Positions 39,522 to 46,168 of a stretch of 64,000 bases of DNA are shown piece after piece; position 1 is the first letter of the stretch, and each line of letters opens with the position of its first letter. The notes below the pieces were generated by a model, which worked only from the letters and a program-made list of their open reading frames with translations, was not told the origin of the DNA and ran no database searches. The stretch is from Planctomycetota bacterium. Lineage in GTDB: Bacteria > Planctomycetota > PUPC01 > DSUN01. The stretch is taken from positions 10,545-74,544 of the forward strand of contig DAOOIT010000016.1 of the NCBI GenBank assembly GCA_035384565.1. Direction: 5' to 3'. The translations under genes were made by a program, and so were the position numbers.

Positions 39522-41270
39522 TCACTTGAGGAAATCGGGCAGGTAGCTATCGCCGGAGTCCTTGGGCTGGAGCTTCTTGCGCTGCTCCTCGCGCTGGCGG
39601 CGCTCGGCCTCGCGGAGTGCGCGGTAGGAGCCGCGCGTGAGGCGATCCTCGTTGCCCGGCCCGGCGATGACGACGATGGAGCTCTCGGCCATCAGGTGCT
39701 TCTGCTTGGCATTGATGTGGTAGCAGCGGCTCTGGCACAGGCCGCAGCCGTTGCACTTGTCGGCGAGCACGACGGGCGCGGAGAAGCCGCTGCCTTCGAC
39801 CGGCTGGCCGTCGTCGCCGATCTCGACGTGGACGCGGACGAACTCGATGGCGTCGTAGCCGGCGGCCTTGCACTCGTCGAAGCACATCTGGCAGGCCTCG
39901 GTGCCGAGGTGCGGCAGGCAGGTGGCCTCGTTGACGATGGCCAGGCCGATGCGGGCGGCGCGCTTCTCGTCGAGCGGCAGGGCGCGAATCGCGCCCGTGG
40001 GGCACACCTGGCCGCAGTTGTTGCACTTCGGCTCGCAGCCGACCCAGTCGGGCACCACCTGCGGCGTCCACAGGCTCTCAAGGCCGTGCTCGAAGCCCAT
40101 CGGCTGAAGGACGTTGAACGGACAGGCCTTGAGGCACTGGCCGCAGCGGACGCACAGGCGCAGGAAGTCGGGCTCGGGCACGCTGCCCGGCGGGCGCAGC
40201 GGCGGGTGGTCGGGCGGCGCGCCGCGGAGCTGGCGAATCCCGACCGCTGCGGCCAGACCCGCCCCCAAGCCCATCGCGAAGCCGCGGCGCGAAACAGGGC
40301 CGTCGCTGGCGCCGGATGTGCGACGCGCGAGGCGCCGCCAGCCGAACTCGATGGCGTTGACGGGACACACCTTGCCACAGGTCTGGCAGAAAGTGCAGTC
40401 GAGGGCGCGGGTGGTGAAATCGGGCCTGATGGCGTCGAAGGAACATGCCCGCGCACACTTGCCGCATTGGATGCACGCCGGCGTCACCTTGCGCTCGGTC
40501 AGCCGGAGGACGTTCGCCACGGAGAAGACTGCGCCACTGGGACACAGGTACCGGCACCAGAAGCGGGCGGCGAGCAGGCCCAGCGCGATCGTGAGCACGA
40601 ACAGCCCGATGGAGAGGTAGTGCCCCGCGTGCATCGGCGGGATGAGGTACCAGCCCTTCGCCAGACCGAGTTGCACGGGGGCGGCCAGATACATCATCCC
40701 GCGCGTGAACACGGGGATGGCGGCGACGAAGCCCGACAGCAGCACGCCGCACGCCGCGGCGGCGAGGAGGCCGCCGAGCACATAGTACCGCAGATGCACC
40801 CACCAGCCGCGGCGCCGCGCTTCCCCCACCTTCTCGTCCCTGCGCTCTGCGTGGGAGCGTGTCTGCCGACGCTCTGCGTCGCGGGCACGGAGGGCCGCGG
40901 AGCGGCCGAAGAGGCGTCCCCAGGCGGAGCGCAGGGATGAGAGCGCGACATGGAACAGGTCGAGGAGGGTGCCGAAGGGGCAAACATAAGCGCAGAAGCC
41001 GCGCGGGATGACCAGGCACACGGCCAGCAGTGCGGCCGCCCAGGCGAGCGACCAGACCCAGGCTCGCGCCGCAATGGCCGTCGAGACGCTCACGAGCGGG
41101 TCGAGTGCGAGGAATGCCTCGGCCTCGACCATCTCGCGCGCGGCCCGCGCCTCCGCGTGGTGGCGCACGTCATAGGGCCAGCAGACGGAGAAGAAGAGGG
41201 CGAGGAAGAGGAGGAAGCAAGCAGATTGAATCGGCCGGCGGAGTCTGCCAATGGCGCGGAGCAGGAACAA
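39522..41270 (-). CDS. membrane-bound polyferredoxin, a NapH/MauN-like N-terminal half fused to a NapG/MauM-like C-terminal half
   Basis: Two CX3CP motifs in TM helices (CAYVCPFG, CRYLCPSG). Six CxxCxxCxxxC(P) 4Fe-4S motifs follow (CIQCGKCARAC, CTFCQTCGKVCP, CVRCGQCLKACP, CNNCGQVCP, CQMCFDEC, CNGCGLCQSRC). There is an internal twin-arginine-like motif, SRRGFAMGLGAGLAAAVG. Confidence 0.8.
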   Translation of the reverse strand: MFLLRAIGRLRRPIQSACFLLFLALFFSVCWPYDVRHHAEARAAREMVEAEAFLALDPLVSVSTAIAARAWVWSLAWAAALLAVCLVIPRGFCAYVCPFGTLLDLFHVALSSLRSAWGRLFGRSAALRARDAERRQTRSHAERRDEKVGEARRRGWWVHLRYYVLGGLLAAAACGVLLSGFVAAIPVFTRGMMYLAAPVQLGLAKGWYLIPPMHAGHYLSIGLFVLTIALGLLAARFWCRYLCPSGAVFSVANVLRLTERKVTPACIQCGKCARACSFDAIRPDFTTRALDCTFCQTCGKVCPVNAIEFGWRRLARRTSGASDGPVSRRGFAMGLGAGLAAAVGIRQLRGAPPDHPPLRPPGSVPEPDFLRLCVRCGQCLKACPFNVLQPMGFEHGLESLWTPQVVPDWVGCEPKCNNCGQVCPTGAIRALPLDEKRAARIGLAIVNEATCLPHLGTEACQMCFDECKAAGYDAIEFVRVHVEIGDDGQPVEGSGFSAPVVLADKCNGCGLCQSRCYHINAKQKHLMAESSIVVIAGPGNEDRLTRGSYRALREAERRQREEQRKKLQPKDSGDSYLPDFLK

Positions 41271-41436
41271 GAGAGAGCCCTCGACTTTGCTTGGCTCCGC
41301 TCGGGATCACGAAGGCCGACTGGGCCGCGTCCCCTCAGTACCGCCCCACAAGGAAGGGCGTGCAGTTCTGGTGGCACAGCCCCTAGGCTGTGGACGAAGC
41401 GGGGCGTGCGCCCAGGCGGCGTTCATGAGCAGGCGT

Positions 41437-42849
41437 TCATTTCATCGCCCCGGCGAGGGCCTTCGCGGTGGCGTTCACGATGGCCTCGGAGGTGATGGTG
41501 GCGCAGGTGACGGCGTCAATCCCCTTGACGCTCTGCTTGGCGACGATCTGCTCGGGGACGGCGACGAGCGAGCTGTAGTATTGCTTGTCTTCGAAGCGGC
41601 TGACTCGGACCGATTCGATGCGGCCGGCGGCGACGGTGACGGTGACCTCGAGCGGCCCGGCGTAGGAGATGCTGGTCGCGCGGTAGGCGCCGTCGGGGAT
41701 GCGCTTGAGGTCCAGGGCATCGTAGACCTTGATGGCGTCTATGTTGGCCTGGGCGCGGTTGCGGAGGCGCTCGATCTGGCCCTTGCGCTGGCCGATGGGC
41801 TGGATTTCGAGGACCTTCTGGTAGCGGGCGACGGCGTCGGAGTAGCGGCCGTGGAGGCGGCAGACGTCCCCGGCGGCGAGGTGGCCTTCGGCCACCCAGC
41901 TCTGGTCGCCGCGCTCGTCGGGCCGCGCCATGGCGGCGGCGAGTCGGAGGGCCTTCTCAGGCTCGCCCATTTCGGACCAGAGCTTGACGATGCCGGCCGA
42001 CACATAGCCGTCCACCTCGCGCATCTTGGCCACGGCCATGGCCTTGCTACCGAGGCGCCAGTAGCATTCGGCCAGGCGCACCGTGTTGAACACGCTGAGC
42101 TTCTGGCGGGCGGCCACCTTCTCCCACCAGAAGGCGGCCCGCGCCCAGTCCTGCATCAGGTTGAAGTAGCTGTTGGCCAACGCCTCCATGGTGCGCGTGA
42201 GCACGGGGGGATTGTCTTTGTGCACGGTGAGGAGGTGGTGGAGGAAGCGGATGCCGCTCTTCCAGCGGCTGGGGTTCTCGTTGATGGTGCTCCAGAGGTA
42301 TTGCCCGATGTTCTTCGAGGGGTTCCAGGGGCCTTGGGGCTTCTCGGGCCACGAGAGGTCGAGGCTCTGGGGATAGTCGAGGGGCGTGGCCTCGTACCAG
42401 TCGGGCGGCGTAGCGCCCGCCTTACGGATGAGCGCAGCCACCTCGGCTTGCGAACGTGCGCCGGCCTTGGGGCTGGGCTCCGACTTGGCCTCCGGCTCGG
42501 GGTCCGATGCCACCGGGGTCTTGGCGGCCTGCGGGGTCTCCTCGTCGTCGGGCGCCTCGCCGTGCTCAGGAGGCTGGGCCTTTGTGGCGGCCTTCGATTC
42601 GGCGCCGGGCTTCTCATTCAGCACGATGCGCCGGCCGCCGATGGTGACGGCGTGGACGCGCGAGACGGGGAACCGCATCTTCGTCTCGGCCCCGCCCATC
42701 GTCACGTTGAAGGTGATGGAGTCTTTGGACTCCTCGACCACGCTGCCGCGGATCCGCTGGCCGTTGAGGAGTTCGACCTCGTCGGCGAGCGCAAGGCCCG
42801 ACATCAGCAGCGAACCCGCAAGAAGCACTGCCATCACGTAGACCCGCAT
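41437..42849 (-). CDS. exported FMN-binding-domain protein (NosR/RnfG/NqrC-type FMN_bind domain at the C-terminus, TPR-like middle region)
   Basis: Signal peptide MRVYVMAVLLAGSLLMSGLALA (ATG at 42849, GGAGAAA upstream). The C-terminal block ..KGIDAVTCATITSEAIVNATAKAL is the conserved FMN_bind motif carrying the flavinylated Thr. A low-complexity P/E/A linker is present. Confidence 0.65.
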   Translation of the reverse strand: MRVYVMAVLLAGSLLMSGLALADEVELLNGQRIRGSVVEESKDSITFNVTMGGAETKMRFPVSRVHAVTIGGRRIVLNEKPGAESKAATKAQPPEHGEAPDDEETPQAAKTPVASDPEPEAKSEPSPKAGARSQAEVAALIRKAGATPPDWYEATPLDYPQSLDLSWPEKPQGPWNPSKNIGQYLWSTINENPSRWKSGIRFLHHLLTVHKDNPPVLTRTMEALANSYFNLMQDWARAAFWWEKVAARQKLSVFNTVRLAECYWRLGSKAMAVAKMREVDGYVSAGIVKLWSEMGEPEKALRLAAAMARPDERGDQSWVAEGHLAAGDVCRLHGRYSDAVARYQKVLEIQPIGQRKGQIERLRNRAQANIDAIKVYDALDLKRIPDGAYRATSISYAGPLEVTVTVAAGRIESVRVSRFEDKQYYSSLVAVPEQIVAKQSVKGIDAVTCATITSEAIVNATAKALAGAMK

Positions 42850-42956
42850 GCTCGGTTTCTCCAAGGCCCTGGGTCGCAATTCAAGCACGAAGGGGCGCTG
42901 GCCGTCAAGCGCGAAGGCCGACGGAGCGACCCGGCCATCCCACGAAGGGGCTGGCG

Positions 42957-45221
42957 TCACTCGCCCTGTATCTTGCGCAGCACCTCGACGAGACGGACGA
43001 CCTTGCCCTCCTGGTGGGCGATGCCGGCCGCCACGCGGTCGCCTGCGCGCACGGTGCCCAGGGCCTCCGCGAGAGCGGGGGGCAGCCCGTCGCGGTTCAC
43101 CGACACGGTGAGCAGCTTGCCGGCGAGGCCCTCGGGATTCCTGGCGGTGTTGGACTGCCAGACTCTCGTGACCTTGTCGGCGCGGAGGACCAGGACGCCT
43201 TCGCCCTTGCCGACCACCACGCCCTCGATCATCCCGCGGAAGCCTGCCACGTCGTCGGCCGTGGCCGGGCCGGCGGCTTCGGTGCGGGTTTCGGGCTTCG
43301 GCTCGTCGCGGCGCTCGCCGTCGCGGGCGACCTTCTTCTCGCGCCAGAACGCCTCGTCGTCGCCGTCGCGTCGCACGGGCTTCTCGCGGCGTTCGCCCTC
43401 GCCGTCGGGCGCGACCTTCTTCTCACGTCTCTCGCCGTCGCCCTCGGGGGCGGTCTTCTTCTCGCGCCAGCCGCCGTCGCCCTCGCCTTCGGTGCGAACC
43501 TTTTTCTCGCGCCAGCCGCCTTCGCCCTCGCCCGAGCGCTTGTCGCGCTTGGGCTGATCGGGCGCGTCGAGCACGCGGTACCTCTTCACCACGAGGCCCG
43601 GCTCGATGCCGTCCTCGCCCGGCGTCGCCTCGCCCACGAGGCGCACGCGGCGGCCGTTCGCCTCGTCCACCAGCTTCGCGCCGTCGGCCTCCTTGAGGAT
43701 GCGGTAGACGGTGACCTTCTCGCGCACGCCCTCGTCGGTCTCCTTGCGTTCGACGACTTTGAGGATGCCGGCGCAGTCGCGGTCGGGCGTGGCCTTCACC
43801 CAGCCCTCGAGTTCGCGCAGCCGACCGCTCTCGGCCTCGACCTTCTTGACGCGGGCGTGGCCTTCGCCTTCGCTCTCGCGGACGGGTTCGACCTTCTTGA
43901 CGCGCGCATGGCCTTCGCCCTCGCCCTCGCCCTCCGGCGCGATCCTCTTCTCACGATGGTGGCCTTCGCCCTCGCCTTCGCGGACGGGTTCGACCTTCTT
44001 GACGCGCGCATGGCCTTCGCCTTCGCCCTCGCCCTCGCCCTCGGAGCGAGCCGGCTTGTCGCGCTCGCCCTCGCCGCCTTCGGTTTCGGCCTTGCGAAGG
44101 AGCTCCATTACGGAGAGGCGGAAGCCCTGGATGTCGAATGCCTCGACGATGATCTGGTCGCCCTGTCGGAGCGACTTGAGGGTTTCGAGGTGCTTCTCGA
44201 GCATGCGGTTCTCGGGCACGACGACCTCGATCGTCTTGCCAACGGCCTGTTCGGGGTGTCGGGCCGTGCTCTGGGGCCAGGTGGCGGCCACTTTGTCAAT
44301 CTTCAGCAGGAACTCGCGTGTGACCTTGCTGGTGATGGTGCCGACGAGGATGCCCTTGAAGCCTTTGAGTTCGGGGGGCAGGGTCGGGCGCTCGGCGTCG
44401 CCGCCGGCGAACACCTGGCTCATGCCGGGGCCCAGCACCGCCACGTCGCCGAAGTGGCAGGCCACCATCCCCGTCACCACCATCACCGTCACCACGGCCG
44501 ACTTCTTCAGCGTCCCCATGTCGCGTTCTCCTTTCTGCGATTCGGGGTATTCGACGCTGGTGAGAAACTCGGTGCCTTTGACCTCGATGGAGCCGATGGG
44601 CGTGAGGAGCGTGAAGCGCCCCCTGCCCGGGTCAATGCGGGAGATGGCGCGGCCGCGCTGGAGCTCGATGGCCTCGTGGCGCGGCTGGCCGCGCACGACG
44701 GCCTGGGCGTTGGGGTCGAGGGCCACGCGGCAGTAGCCGCCGAGGGCGAGTTCGGCGCCGCCGGCTTCGGCGACGATGCGCTGGCCCCGCGAGAGCGCGG
44801 CGGAGCCGGTGCGGAGGGTGTCACCGTCGCCGAGGCGGAATGCGCCCGTGGCGATGAGCGAGTGTGCGCGCCCGCGGCTCGCCTGCCAGACGCCGTGGGC
44901 GGCATAGAGCGCGCCGAGGAGGACGGCGGCGGCCGCGGCCCAGCGCAGCCCTCGGCCTCGGCGGGCCGGGCGGCGCTGGATGGCGTGGGCTTTGGCGCGC
45001 AGGGTGGCCTTGGCGAGGAGACGCTCGCGGCTGTGGGCCAGGGCGTCGGCCTGGCGGCCTGCCAGGCGCTGGCGGAGCTGGCCCTCGAAGCACACGGCGG
45101 CCGCGGCCTCCTGGCGCCGGGCCGGGTCGGCGAGGGCGGCGGCCAGGGCGCGGGCTTCGGCCTCCGAGAGCGGCTCGCCCTCCAGCGCGCGGTCGAGGAG
45201 ATCGTGCCAGTGGCTGCTCAT
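42957..45221 (-). CDS. anti-sigma factor (N-terminal anti-sigma domain, one TM helix, FecR-like domain) with a long C-terminal extension of three repeated ~70-aa domains separated by EG-rich tandem repeats
   Basis: Start MSSHWHDLL at 45221 overlaps the sigma-factor stop (ATGA). TM LRWAAAAAVLLGALYAA. A FecR-like block (GSIEVKGTEF). Repeats (EGEGEGEGHARVKKVEPVRE)x4 and (GEGDGGWREKKxAPE)x4. Upstream in-frame codons (to 45527) are R/P-rich and were rejected. Confidence 0.7.
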   Translation of the reverse strand: MSSHWHDLLDRALEGEPLSEAEARALAAALADPARRQEAAAAVCFEGQLRQRLAGRQADALAHSRERLLAKATLRAKAHAIQRRPARRGRGLRWAAAAAVLLGALYAAHGVWQASRGRAHSLIATGAFRLGDGDTLRTGSAALSRGQRIVAEAGGAELALGGYCRVALDPNAQAVVRGQPRHEAIELQRGRAISRIDPGRGRFTLLTPIGSIEVKGTEFLTSVEYPESQKGERDMGTLKKSAVVTVMVVTGMVACHFGDVAVLGPGMSQVFAGGDAERPTLPPELKGFKGILVGTITSKVTREFLLKIDKVAATWPQSTARHPEQAVGKTIEVVVPENRMLEKHLETLKSLRQGDQIIVEAFDIQGFRLSVMELLRKAETEGGEGERDKPARSEGEGEGEGEGHARVKKVEPVREGEGEGHHREKRIAPEGEGEGEGHARVKKVEPVRESEGEGHARVKKVEAESGRLRELEGWVKATPDRDCAGILKVVERKETDEGVREKVTVYRILKEADGAKLVDEANGRRVRLVGEATPGEDGIEPGLVVKRYRVLDAPDQPKRDKRSGEGEGGWREKKVRTEGEGDGGWREKKTAPEGDGERREKKVAPDGEGERREKPVRRDGDDEAFWREKKVARDGERRDEPKPETRTEAAGPATADDVAGFRGMIEGVVVGKGEGVLVLRADKVTRVWQSNTARNPEGLAGKLLTVSVNRDGLPPALAEALGTVRAGDRVAAGIAHQEGKVVRLVEVLRKIQGE

Positions 45222-45712
45222 GGCGCCAGTTCCCCGGCCAGTTGGCCCTCGACGCATCGCTTGAGGGCTTGGCGGATGCGGAAGAGCTGGACCCGTACGG
45301 TGGCGGCGTTCCGGGAGAGCTGCTCGGCGATCTGGGTGACCCGCAGGCCGTGCTCGTAGCGGCGGGCCACGAGGTCGCGGTCCTCGGGCGATAGGGTGCC
45401 GAGGCAGTGGTCGAGGGCGGCGTGAAGCTCGCGGCTGGCGGCGCGCGAGAGTGCGTCGTCGGCCTCCTCGGCCAGGAGAGCGAGGCGGTCGGCGGCGTCC
45501 TGCGTCAGCTTCTGATGCTCGCGCCACCAGGTCTTCACCAGGTTACGCACGGTGCCGCGGAGCCAGGCGCCGGGGTCGCCGGTGAACTCGCGCCCCTCTT
45601 CCAGGCGGTCGAAGGCGATGAGGAATGCCTCGTGCACGATGTCCTCGGCCTCGGGGGCGCCGCGGGTGAGGAAGCGCGCGTAGCGCCACGCGCCTTCGTA
45701 GTGGCGGTCCAC
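45218..45712 (-). CDS. ECF-type RNA polymerase sigma factor (sigma-70 family group 4)
   Basis: ..RFEALVDRHYEGAWRYARFL.. is region 2.1/2.2, and ..LSPEDRDLVARRYEHGLRVTQIAEQLSRNAATVRVQLFRIRQAL.. is the region-4 HTH. GTG at 45710-45712. The in-frame upstream codons (..RLRHRFEALV..) suggest the true start lies a few codons further 5' at a non-ATG codon. Confidence 0.75.
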   Translation of the reverse strand: MDRHYEGAWRYARFLTRGAPEAEDIVHEAFLIAFDRLEEGREFTGDPGAWLRGTVRNLVKTWWREHQKLTQDAADRLALLAEEADDALSRAASRELHAALDHCLGTLSPEDRDLVARRYEHGLRVTQIAEQLSRNAATVRVQLFRIRQALKRCVEGQLAGELAP

Positions 45713-45860
45713 CAGGGCTTCGAAGCGGTGGCGCAGGCGGCTGATGGCGAGTCTCCTGGTATGTGCGGCCAGCTTCCTTCATAGGGTACTGTGGCGCGGG
45801 AATCAAATGTTTCACGGTTCTCCGCCTGCGGCGCCGGCATGTTGCTGCTTGGCAACATGC

Positions 45861-45983
45861 CACCCATACTTGCTCATTCCTGTGAGGGTGGAATTGAGCA
45901 AGTATGGGTGGAACGCCCCCGGAGGCCGCCGGATCGCCAAAGCGCCATACTTGCTCACCTGGGGGGATGAGCAAGTATGGGGG
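45861..45983. repeat. Family-A hairpin repeat cluster (four alternating copies of CCATACTTGCTCA / TGAGCAAGTATGG) in the divergent promoter region between the ECF sigma gene and the 46169 gene
   Basis: Copies at 45863-45876(-), 45895-45908(+), 45945-45958(-) and 45968-45980(+). The 45929-45958 copy carries the full 30-bp unit including GGCGATCCGG. Confidence 0.7.
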
Positions 45984-46168
45984 ACGGGGTGTCTGATTTG
46001 TCGGACTCGTTGGACGTGTCGGACTGGTCGGACGCATCGGACTTGTCGGGTTCGCCGGCTTCGGGGGCTAATTGGCCTTGCACGAGATGGGCGGGCTGAC
46101 ATGAATAGAGTCGCTGCCCCGCACGAGGGCGGAGAGACCGAGGGTGAAGGGGAGAAGGAGGAGTGGCG

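Follow-up and report, generated by a model that had tools for sequence, protein, structure and literature searches.

Pairs of an extracytoplasmic function (ECF) sigma factor and its anti-sigma factor are a major signalling system, and Planctomycetota possess very many of them. The subject of this report is one such pair, encoded in a 64-kb stretch of DNA from an uncultured Planctomycetota bacterium (the whole stretch that was analysed is called the window, and all positions refer to it). The uninterrupted translation of the anti-sigma gene gives 754 amino acids followed by a stop codon and corresponds to a FecR-type anti-sigma factor. Its ATG start codon at position 45221 overlaps the stop codon (ATGA) of the 164-residue open reading frame (ORF) of the sigma factor (45218-45712, minus strand), and the anti-sigma factor is translationally coupled to the ECF sigma factor by this overlap. 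Beyond the FecR domain the protein continues into a long C-terminal arm, in which three small beta-domains (A, B and C) are joined by two repetitive linkers. The features of the locus are collected in table 1.

Table 1. Features of the sigma/anti-sigma locus (aa, amino acids of the anti-sigma factor; AF2, AlphaFold2; TRF, Tandem Repeats Finder).
Feature	Position	Strand	Remarks
Whole anti-sigma gene	42957-45221	-	754 aa and stop; ATGA overlap with the sigma ORF; 13 full-length homologues
Cytoplasmic anti-sigma domain, aa 1-85, four helices	44967-45221	-	AF2
Single transmembrane helix, aa ~94-117	44871-44942	-	hydrophobic stretch WAAAAAVLLGALYAAHGVW; AF2 helix 97-117
Periplasmic FecR beta-domain, aa ~120-275, invariant Gly216-Thr217	44397-44864	-	Pfam, Foldseek
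OB-fold domain A (predicted), aa 281-380	44082-44381	-	six-frame hmmsearch, E 2.6e-35
Linker 1, aa 381-466, predicted disordered polyampholyte repeat, four EGEGEGHARVKKVEPVR-type units, 5 His	43824-44081	-	TRF, AF2
Domain B, aa ~467-552, lineage-specific small beta-domain, OB-like strand order (predicted)	43566-43823	-	AF2
Linker 2, aa 553-653, predicted disordered polyampholyte repeat, about five GEGDGGWREKKVAPD-type units, 3 Trp	43263-43565	-	TRF, AF2
OB-fold domain C (predicted), aa 655-752, C-terminal	42966-43259	-	six-frame hmmsearch, E 8.5e-28
ECF sigma gene	45218-45745	-	listed ORF from GTG 45712; probable start ATC 45745-45743; Sigma70_r2 and Sigma70_r4_2
Promoter-like motif TGAAAC-N17-CAGTA upstream of sigma	45787-45814	-	conserved, single in the window

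The anti-sigma gene and its conserved core

FecR is the sole Pfam domain in the 754-residue protein (residues 154-226, E 3.6e-5, 24.6 bits vs a cutoff of 24); its relatives match the same family with E values as good as 9e-13. The AF2 model of the full-length protein has a mean per-residue confidence (pLDDT) of 65, and the confident parts are the N-terminal helices, the FecR beta-domain (residues 120-272) and domains A, B and C (pLDDT 81-91). When this model was compared with the PDB by Foldseek, the C-terminal signalling domain of PupR (6ovk, E 3e-5) and the Bacteroides anti-sigma factor BDI_1681 (4m0h, E 8e-5) came first, followed by OB-fold proteins. A PDB sequence search with the FecR region gave nothing significant.

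In the predicted structure the protein has the N-terminal cytoplasmic domain of FecR-type anti-sigma factors, with helices at 5-13, 20-30, 33-53 and 65-82 (pLDDT 72-86 over residues 1-50 and 55-64 over residues 51-80). The N-terminus is invariant in 14 sequences, the window protein and its homologues, and matches the NCBIfam model 'antisigma' weakly (E 0.033). The single transmembrane helix is modelled at low confidence (pLDDT ~40-44 over residues 97-117, and below 50 over the entire 83-119 segment) and is followed by the periplasmic FecR beta-domain (PF04773). The first-pass annotation, made from the letters of the DNA, had described an anti-sigma factor with an anti-sigma domain, a transmembrane helix and a FecR-like sensor, and this is borne out by Pfam, AF2 and Foldseek; the unusual C-terminal extension, put there at about 450 residues, is real and measures about 470.

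A second hydrophobic stretch, at residues 241-257, was considered as a further transmembrane helix and rejected, being modelled by AF2 as beta-strands within the FecR domain. The DNA of this region (44462-44495, minus strand, residues 243-253) contains 2.3 copies of a 15-bp tandem repeat encoding VVTVMVVTGMV. The repeat is kept in the homologue P0001 and is likewise predicted to form beta-strands and no transmembrane helix.

The classical proteins FecR, FoxR and PupR dock onto a TonB-dependent transducer through an STN-like domain at the C-terminus. FoxR consists of a beta-subdomain (residues 107-247) and an STN domain (248-328), with a self-cleavage site at G191/T192, and classical FecR signalling proceeds by homotypic STN-STN pairing with the signalling domain of the transducer (PMC11637429). 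The window protein resembles these proteins in its co-encoded ECF sigma factor, N-terminal anti-sigma domain, single transmembrane helix and periplasmic beta-solenoid-like FecR domain with a conserved Gly-Thr. Gly216 and Thr217 are invariant among the 14 sequences and lie about 96 residues into the beta-domain, vs about 84 for FoxR G191/T192 (PMC11637429) when the two are compared by position count and not by alignment. The protein differs in that it has no STN-like C-terminus and no TonB-dependent transducer gene nearby. Neither STN nor DUF4974 is matched, FecR being all that Pfam returns for the 754 residues at E<=1, and in the AF2 model the residues C-terminal of FecR fold as an OB barrel and not as an STN domain. 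Its length of 754 residues, compared with about 320 in the classical proteins, comes from the OB domains and disordered linkers of its arm.

The exact 754-residue protein is present on 12 public contigs, including one of the NCBI metagenome-assembled genome (MAG) GCA_035452185.1 (contig DAOTQA010000028.1) and others from two JGI metagenomes, and the DNA of the gene is identical across three independent assemblies. Thirteen homologues from different samples are full-length and have the same architecture, the A...C arrangement being found in all 14 sequences down to 39-42% identity. A family scan with the full-length anti-sigma alignment gave 8 loci, all in MAGs and mostly labelled Planctomycetota, Pirellulaceae or Planctomycetaceae; among them, L015 is labelled 'uncultured bacterium' and one Verrucomicrobia contig matches the N-terminus only. 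Several ORFs on the plus strand overlap the gene (43014-45359 and others). They were dismissed as shadow ORFs of a GC-rich gene, because the Pfam matches, the conservation among orthologues and the in-frame indels favour the minus strand.

Domains and linkers of the periplasmic arm

Domains A and C are about 100 residues long each and are homologous (BLASTP, 30% identity over 103 residues, E 8e-16). Domain B is unrelated to them in sequence (BLASTP E values of 3.8 and 0.68; probability of 1.3% in an hhalign comparison of the family profiles). Of the three repeated domains of about 70 residues reported by the first-pass annotation, two are indeed copies of one another on formal alignment, although longer than was stated, whereas the third is not. 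Among 158 related proteins, domain B occurs only in this family of anti-sigma factors, those with the order anti-sigma domain-FecR-A-B-C. Two homologues, P0009 and P0010, lack it, and P0011 has a third A/C-type copy in its place.

Modelled alone by AF2 with an alignment of 70 sequences, domain A reached a pLDDT of 96.6 and a predicted template-modelling score of 0.87. Its order is b1-b2-(short helix)-b3-helix-b4-b5, with strands at 9-19, 23-34 and 50-54, a helix at 61-70 and strands at 76-83 and 89-97. In the full-length model domain C has the same strand order (pLDDT 81-89). Domain B (pLDDT 82-88) has strands at 468-477, 485-495 and 498-508, a helix at 514-521 and strands at 525-533 and 542-550, and shares the order b1-b2-b3-helix-b4-b5 with A and C in the full-length model only. 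Every one of the top-ranked PDB matches of domain A that were inspected with Foldseek is an OB-fold. The CusF-like C-terminal domain of SilB ranks first (2l55, E 1.8e-3, template-modelling score 0.67); further matches, at 10-20% identity, include exosome Csl4, the anticodon-binding N-domain of LysRS, SSB and IF1. Domains A and C are confidently predicted to be OB-folds, with the five-stranded barrel of that class. The predicted fold is clear, yet it has no close solved relative, and the weakness of the matches to solved OB-folds means that no ligand class can be transferred from them. Searches of PDB sequences with the A/C profile and with the B profile gave nothing significant, and domain B has no Pfam match either.

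The distribution of the A/C domain was established by searching a profile of both copies against 1.84 billion cluster representatives (clusters at 50% identity). This gave 468 representatives at E<=1e-3 and 281 at E<=1e-10, with 1-4 OB copies per protein. Among 113 members scanned with Pfam, 25 carry Peptidase_M56 (BlaR1-type), 19 FecR and 2 zf-HC2, and most of the others match nothing. A handful of these unannotated members were read; they consist of a signal peptide and one or more OB domains, and in some cases another beta-domain and a coiled coil precede the OB part. The A/C domain itself is not covered by any Pfam family in the 113 members, with isolated touches only to DUF5666 and, below threshold, to CusF_Ec, tRNA_anti-like and OB_cyt-4, and NCBIfam has no model for it. 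The DUF5666 match was seen in one of the 113 (28.4 vs 27 bits) over half a domain and is absent from the window protein, and the domain is not assigned to that family. In the databases the members are named 'hypothetical protein' or 'beta-lactamase regulating signal transducer', the latter name referring to the M56 part only. No link between OB-folds and anti-sigma sensing was found in the literature searched, and the family appears to be undescribed.

Conserved columns were analysed in 148 copies of the domain. The family signature is P-[ED]-G-x-x-G-F-x-G ... W-K-x-[NS]-K-A-x-x-P-E-x-x-V-G-K ... G-D-x-V-x-V-E-A-F-H-x-x-G ... E-x-L-[RK]-K. Judged by its place among the secondary-structure elements, the W...P segment corresponds to the loop that follows strand 2, and the His to the end of strand 4. 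On this basis the most conserved residues (W-K-x-N/S-K-A-x-x-P and the His) are inferred to lie where the binding face of a canonical OB-fold is expected.

The OB family recurs at the extracytoplasmic end of anti-sigma factors of the FecR and zf-HC2/FecR types. In many planctomycetal BlaR1-type proteins that are paired with BlaI, the sensor end outside the cytoplasm likewise consists of OB domains of this family, and in these the OB array holds the positional role of the penicillin-binding sensor domain of BlaR1/MecR1. The window protein differs from this class in having no M56 protease, and its output is sigma sequestration, not repressor cleavage. At locus L019 (145-7041) a gene for the repressor BlaI directly precedes that of a BlaR1-type M56 protein, which carries four OB copies, and genes for a PSCyt2/PSD1 protein and for DUF1501 come next; the OB module there heads a BlaI/BlaR1-type circuit beside the PSD1/DUF1501 pair that is common in Planctomycetota. 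Locus L021 (3782-6720) encodes a sigma factor, an anti-sigma factor with two OB domains, a separate secreted protein with two OB domains (P0162) and then FMN_bind. The linker of its anti-sigma factor contains a run of N, an assembly gap within the repeat. At L014, the product of the gene that follows the anti-sigma gene has an OB domain at its end. A six-frame hmmsearch of the 64-kb window found no second gene encoding an OB domain of this family.

The linkers between the domains are predicted to be disordered, because pLDDT is about 30 over residues 381-466 and 553-649 of the full-length model. Both consist of in-frame tandem repeats that alternate acidic-glycine (EGEGEG) and basic (REKK/RVKK) blocks. 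Linker 1 is made up of 68% E/G/R/K/D with a net charge of -6, and its units measure 21, 15, 19 and 17 residues. Linker 2 has 69% of these residues and a net charge of -1. In linker 1, TRF reports a period of 51 bp with 3.8 copies (43837-44032) and one of 102 bp with 2.2 copies (43860-44082); in linker 2 it reports a period of 45 bp with 5.1 copies (43314-43532). The scores of these arrays are 166-277, the best with a period of at least 30 bp being 277, and none of 200 codon shuffles of the extension reached the minimum score at such periods. The EG-rich repeats seen at first reading are real, far above chance. They had been described as a 60-bp and a 45-bp array of four units each. The shorter period is confirmed with five units instead of four, and the longer array does have four units but no clean 60-bp period.

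The length of the linkers varies among relatives. Compared with the window gene, the gene for P0001, at locus L006, has 8 substitutions over 2220 nt (99.6% identity) and one clean 45-bp in-frame deletion, which corresponds to window positions 43932-43976 in linker 1. One unit, EGEGEGHHREKRIAP, is gone, and GGCGAGGGCGA-type sequence flanks the gap on both sides in the alignment. Among the 14 homologues linker 1 ranges from 28 to 119 residues and linker 2 from 45 to 112. The units are lineage-specific (for example EGEGEVREKKPHR, RREGEGEGHEKVV and GEREGEGRAIKRDG), with periods of 39-57 bp and 2.3-6.5 copies; they are 69-91% alike, and identity within an array reaches 90-91%. Constant among these linkers are the proportion of E/G/R/K/D (58-93%) and the net charge (-6 to +1). 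On these comparisons composition is conserved, and the sequence and copy number of the units turn over fast; the arrays bear the signature of ongoing expansion, contraction and homogenization.

The first-pass annotation had proposed length variation driven by slippage, and a comparison of copy number across strains. The variation is there, as the unit missing at L006 and the ranges among orthologues show, but units that are 39-57 bp long and only 69-91% alike speak for unequal recombination between them rather than for classical slippage, which is less likely. Since all the changes are in-frame, what varies would be length and not on/off expression. Classification as a slipped-strand phase-variable locus was considered and rejected, the units being diverged and multiples of 3 and the variant an in-frame 45-bp indel. 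The same annotation had called such charged linkers atypical, which is true with respect to classical FecR proteins but not within the OB family, where the few members read carry E/G/R/K linkers.

The periplasm-spanning spacer of TonB, a proline-rich sequence of the type (Glu-Pro)n/(Lys-Pro)n with alternating acidic and basic parts, is comparable as a low-complexity periplasmic spacer of alternating acidic and basic blocks. The linkers of the window protein differ in being glycine-based, much longer and present twice. With glycine in place of proline they are predicted to be flexible and not rod-like as in TonB.

Sigma gene, upstream region and neighbouring genes

The nearest NCBIfam model to the sigma factor is TIGR02989, an ECF family of Rhodopirellula and Verrucomicrobium, matched with 94 bits, below its cutoff. 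In this respect the locus differs from FecR systems, the sigma factor not being FecI-like. Upstream of the listed GTG, 11 further codons (45713-45745; A-I-S-R-L-R-H-R-F-E-A-L) are conserved at the protein level with synonymous changes in the DNA at 5 loci. Read codon by codon in the window, this upstream frame contains no ATG, GTG or TTG. An invariant ATC/ATT sits 7-9 nt after a conserved AGGAG(G), and the sigma gene probably starts at this non-canonical Ile codon.

Upstream of the sigma gene, the motif TGAAAC-N17-CAGTA has its single occurrence in the 64 kb of the window, where 0.01 would be expected. Each of 13 related loci has one match to it; in 12 of them its relative position and strand agree with the window, and in L013 it lies on the opposite strand. 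In the intergenic region upstream of sigma, which cannot otherwise be aligned, it is the sole conserved block, and it is plausible as a candidate autoregulatory ECF promoter.

Between the sigma gene and the divergent Gfo/Idh/MocA gene lie two hairpin palindromes (45860-45911 and 45945-45980) with the common arms CCATACTTGCTCA/TGAGCAAGTATGG. In L001, hairpins at the same place have other arms (ATCTGTATCAC/GTGATACAGAT), a compensatory change. Adjoining the hairpins is an array with a 9-bp period (45990-46043, TGTCGGACN, about 6 units), which may be a set of regulator binding sites; a GTCCGAC-type repeat is present at the corresponding place in L001. An Rfam search of the intergenic region upstream of sigma gave no match.

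The gene cluster is common to the orthologous loci L001, L004 and L005, down to 42% identity. Its divergent arm encodes a protein of about 1060 residues, a HEAT-repeat protein of about 875 residues and a Gfo/Idh/MocA oxidoreductase. The other arm encodes, in order, the ECF sigma factor, the anti-sigma factor, a TPR and FMN_bind protein, a NapH-like polyferredoxin, a DUF5060/TSP3 protein, GH123 and an SBBP propeller. The counterparts in the window were confirmed by Pfam, and the one of about 885 residues has a weak match to Hepar_II_III_N (heparinase II/III-like). L003, the locus of P0010, shows the divergent arm only, and a radical-SAM gene follows its anti-sigma gene. The surroundings of the gene, in the window as in four orthologous loci, contain no gene for a TonB-dependent receptor or transducer.

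The two genes directly downstream of the anti-sigma gene (39522-42960, minus strand) are conserved with it. They encode a secreted TPR and FMN_bind protein (RnfG/NosR-like) and a membrane-bound NapH-like polyferredoxin with Fer4_5 and several 4Fe-4S motifs. Together, they are reminiscent of a split electron-transfer pair of the NosR type. They are embedded in a cluster of glycoside hydrolases (DUF5060, two GH123 genes and the SBBP propeller), an unusual pairing.

A model for the arm and its alternatives

In our best reading, the arm is a set of beads on a string (OB-A/linker/B/linker/OB-C) that stands in for the STN domain and its TonB-transducer partner. The OB domains would receive the signal by binding a ligand or a partner. 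The linkers, each roughly 30-35 nm in contour length, would serve as flexible tethers, so that the domains could explore the wide periplasm of planctomycetes well away from the inner membrane. Gly216-Thr217 could be the counterpart in kind of the FoxR self-cleavage site, and signalling would probably proceed by regulated proteolysis. The freed sigma factor would then act on TGAAAC-N17-CAGTA in front of its own operon, and the operon so driven would run on into the TPR/FMN-binding, polyferredoxin, DUF5060 and GH123 genes. Because of this gene context a glycan-derived signal is favoured, and it is our best guess at the most likely class of ligand.

The protein would accordingly be described as the membrane-bound anti-sigma partner of the co-translated ECF sigma factor, with an OB sensor arm and a glycan-linked operon, and taken as a whole we hold this description to be probable, with considerable room for doubt. 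Several points weigh against it. Everything beyond the architecture (ligand, partner and cleavage) is inferred, the glycan link comes from the gene neighbourhood only, and the redox neighbours (FMN_bind and polyferredoxin) are not explained by glycan sensing. The Pfam FecR match is only just above its cutoff (24.6 vs 24 bits), and the matches to solved OB-folds are weak (E no better than 1.8e-3, 10-20% identity). The conserved loop was placed on the binding face from the order of secondary structures and not by superposition; in the window protein this putative binding loop diverges (WPQSTARHPE and WQSNTARNPE vs WKQNKAxxPE in the family), and the His that is usual in the family is replaced by Asp in domain A.

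The OB domains might instead pair with those of other periplasmic proteins, or A with C, and signal by switching partners. Homotypic contacts of this kind would be consistent with the abundance of free secreted proteins with 1-4 OB domains, which are the commonest members of the family, with the secreted double-OB protein encoded directly after an OB-bearing anti-sigma factor at L021, and with the OB domain that ends the next gene at L014. They would also parallel the STN-STN pairing of classical FecR (PMC11637429). The window has no second OB gene, and none was seen in the orthologous loci L001-L011; we consider such pairing possible but unlikely.

The linkers themselves could be the sensor. 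As disordered polyampholytes they would report the porosity of peptidoglycan, the width of the periplasm or ionic strength, and the barrels would be anchors or stoppers. Block polyampholytes change their dimensions with salt, and the composition and near-neutral charge of the linkers are conserved while their sequence is not. Among anti-sigma factors, RsgI of Bacillus subtilis sets a precedent: its extracytoplasmic disordered region was proposed to sense the state of the envelope (PMC9732909). RsgI proteins, the anti-sigma-I factors of Bacillus and Clostridium, resemble the window protein in having a modular extracytoplasmic part with a disordered region and binding modules, a context of polysaccharide degradation and a swappable sensor on a conserved core. 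The analogy is functional only: the window protein is unrelated to them, comes from a diderm, and has no SEAL domain and no sigma-I partner, its sigma factor being of the ECF type, its juxtamembrane domain FecR, and its modules OB-folds instead of CBM/PA14. Sensing by the linkers is hard to square, as a ruler, with a four-fold range of linker length among orthologues of the same cluster. Moreover, P0014, P0027 and BlaR1-type proteins join their OB domains by very short linkers or none, and the OB domains are far more conserved than mere anchors need to be. We regard this explanation as improbable.

If the arm were functionally neutral, or purely a structural spacer, the repeats would be selfish in-frame expansions tolerated in disorder, and all sensing would be left to the FecR domain. 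The rapid turnover of repeat units and copy number fits this idea. So does the fact that P0009 and P0010, without domain B and with short linkers, still keep the divergent genes for Gfo/Idh/MocA, HEAT and the protein of about 1060 residues (at L003 the downstream FMN_bind/GH123 arm was not seen). This explanation is distinctly improbable, given that the A...C arrangement is kept in all 14 homologues down to 39-42% identity, that the OB domain recurs on three unrelated classes of signal transducer, and that linker composition is maintained despite the turnover.

Metal sensing, in which the OB domains would be CusF/SilB-like metal binders and the His residues of linker 1 would add capacity, is very improbable. 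The window domains do share with CusF/SilB-C, as with DUF5666 and tRNA_anti-like domains, a periplasmic location and a five-stranded barrel with a helix between strands 3 and 4. The best solved match is the SilB C-terminal domain (2l55, template-modelling score 0.67), one family member has a sub-threshold Pfam match to CusF_Ec, Trp and His are conserved in the family, linker 1 has 5 His, and redox genes lie downstream. A and C differ from all these domains in having no significant sequence relationship to them and no metal-ligand residues. Without a conserved Met or Cys in the 148 domain copies there is no CusF-type site, and hhalign of the family profile against Escherichia coli CusF gave a probability of 2%. 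On these two results, homology to CusF and a role as a CusF/SilB metallochaperone were rejected. The Foldseek E value is just 1.8e-3, with generic OB-folds close behind, and the His count of linker 1 ranges from 0 to 5 among orthologues and is not conserved.

The chance that the repeat arrays are an artefact of assembly, collapsed or expanded as the first-pass annotation had allowed, is negligible: these are short-read metagenome assemblies and L021 has its run of N in the equivalent linker, but three independent assemblies agree in every base of the gene, the exact protein lies on 12 contigs, the arrays are in-frame, and the architecture is repeated in 13 homologues from different samples.

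To our knowledge, FecR-type anti-sigma factors of Planctomycetota have no TonB-dependent partners, and the locus offers a concrete replacement for the missing partner-docking domain. No principle is overturned, the transducer core being that of a conventional anti-sigma factor. More tentatively, and with the balance of probability still against it, Planctomycetota may use an undescribed, interchangeable periplasmic OB-fold receptor module, often on expandable polyampholyte spacers, as a common input for at least three classes of membrane-spanning transducer, namely FecR anti-sigma factors, zf-HC2 anti-sigma factors and BlaR1/BlaI. At this locus the module would replace the TonB-transducer arm and couple a glycan-derived signal to an operon for glycoside hydrolases and flavin/Fe-S redox proteins. 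The domain family is worth cataloguing, with at least 468 clusters, neither a Pfam nor an NCBIfam model, reuse on BlaR1-type sensors and occurrence as free periplasmic proteins. The linkers provide a natural series of length variants for the study of tethered periplasmic sensing by disordered segments, and the module is a testable candidate for the input of signalling in a poorly understood phylum.

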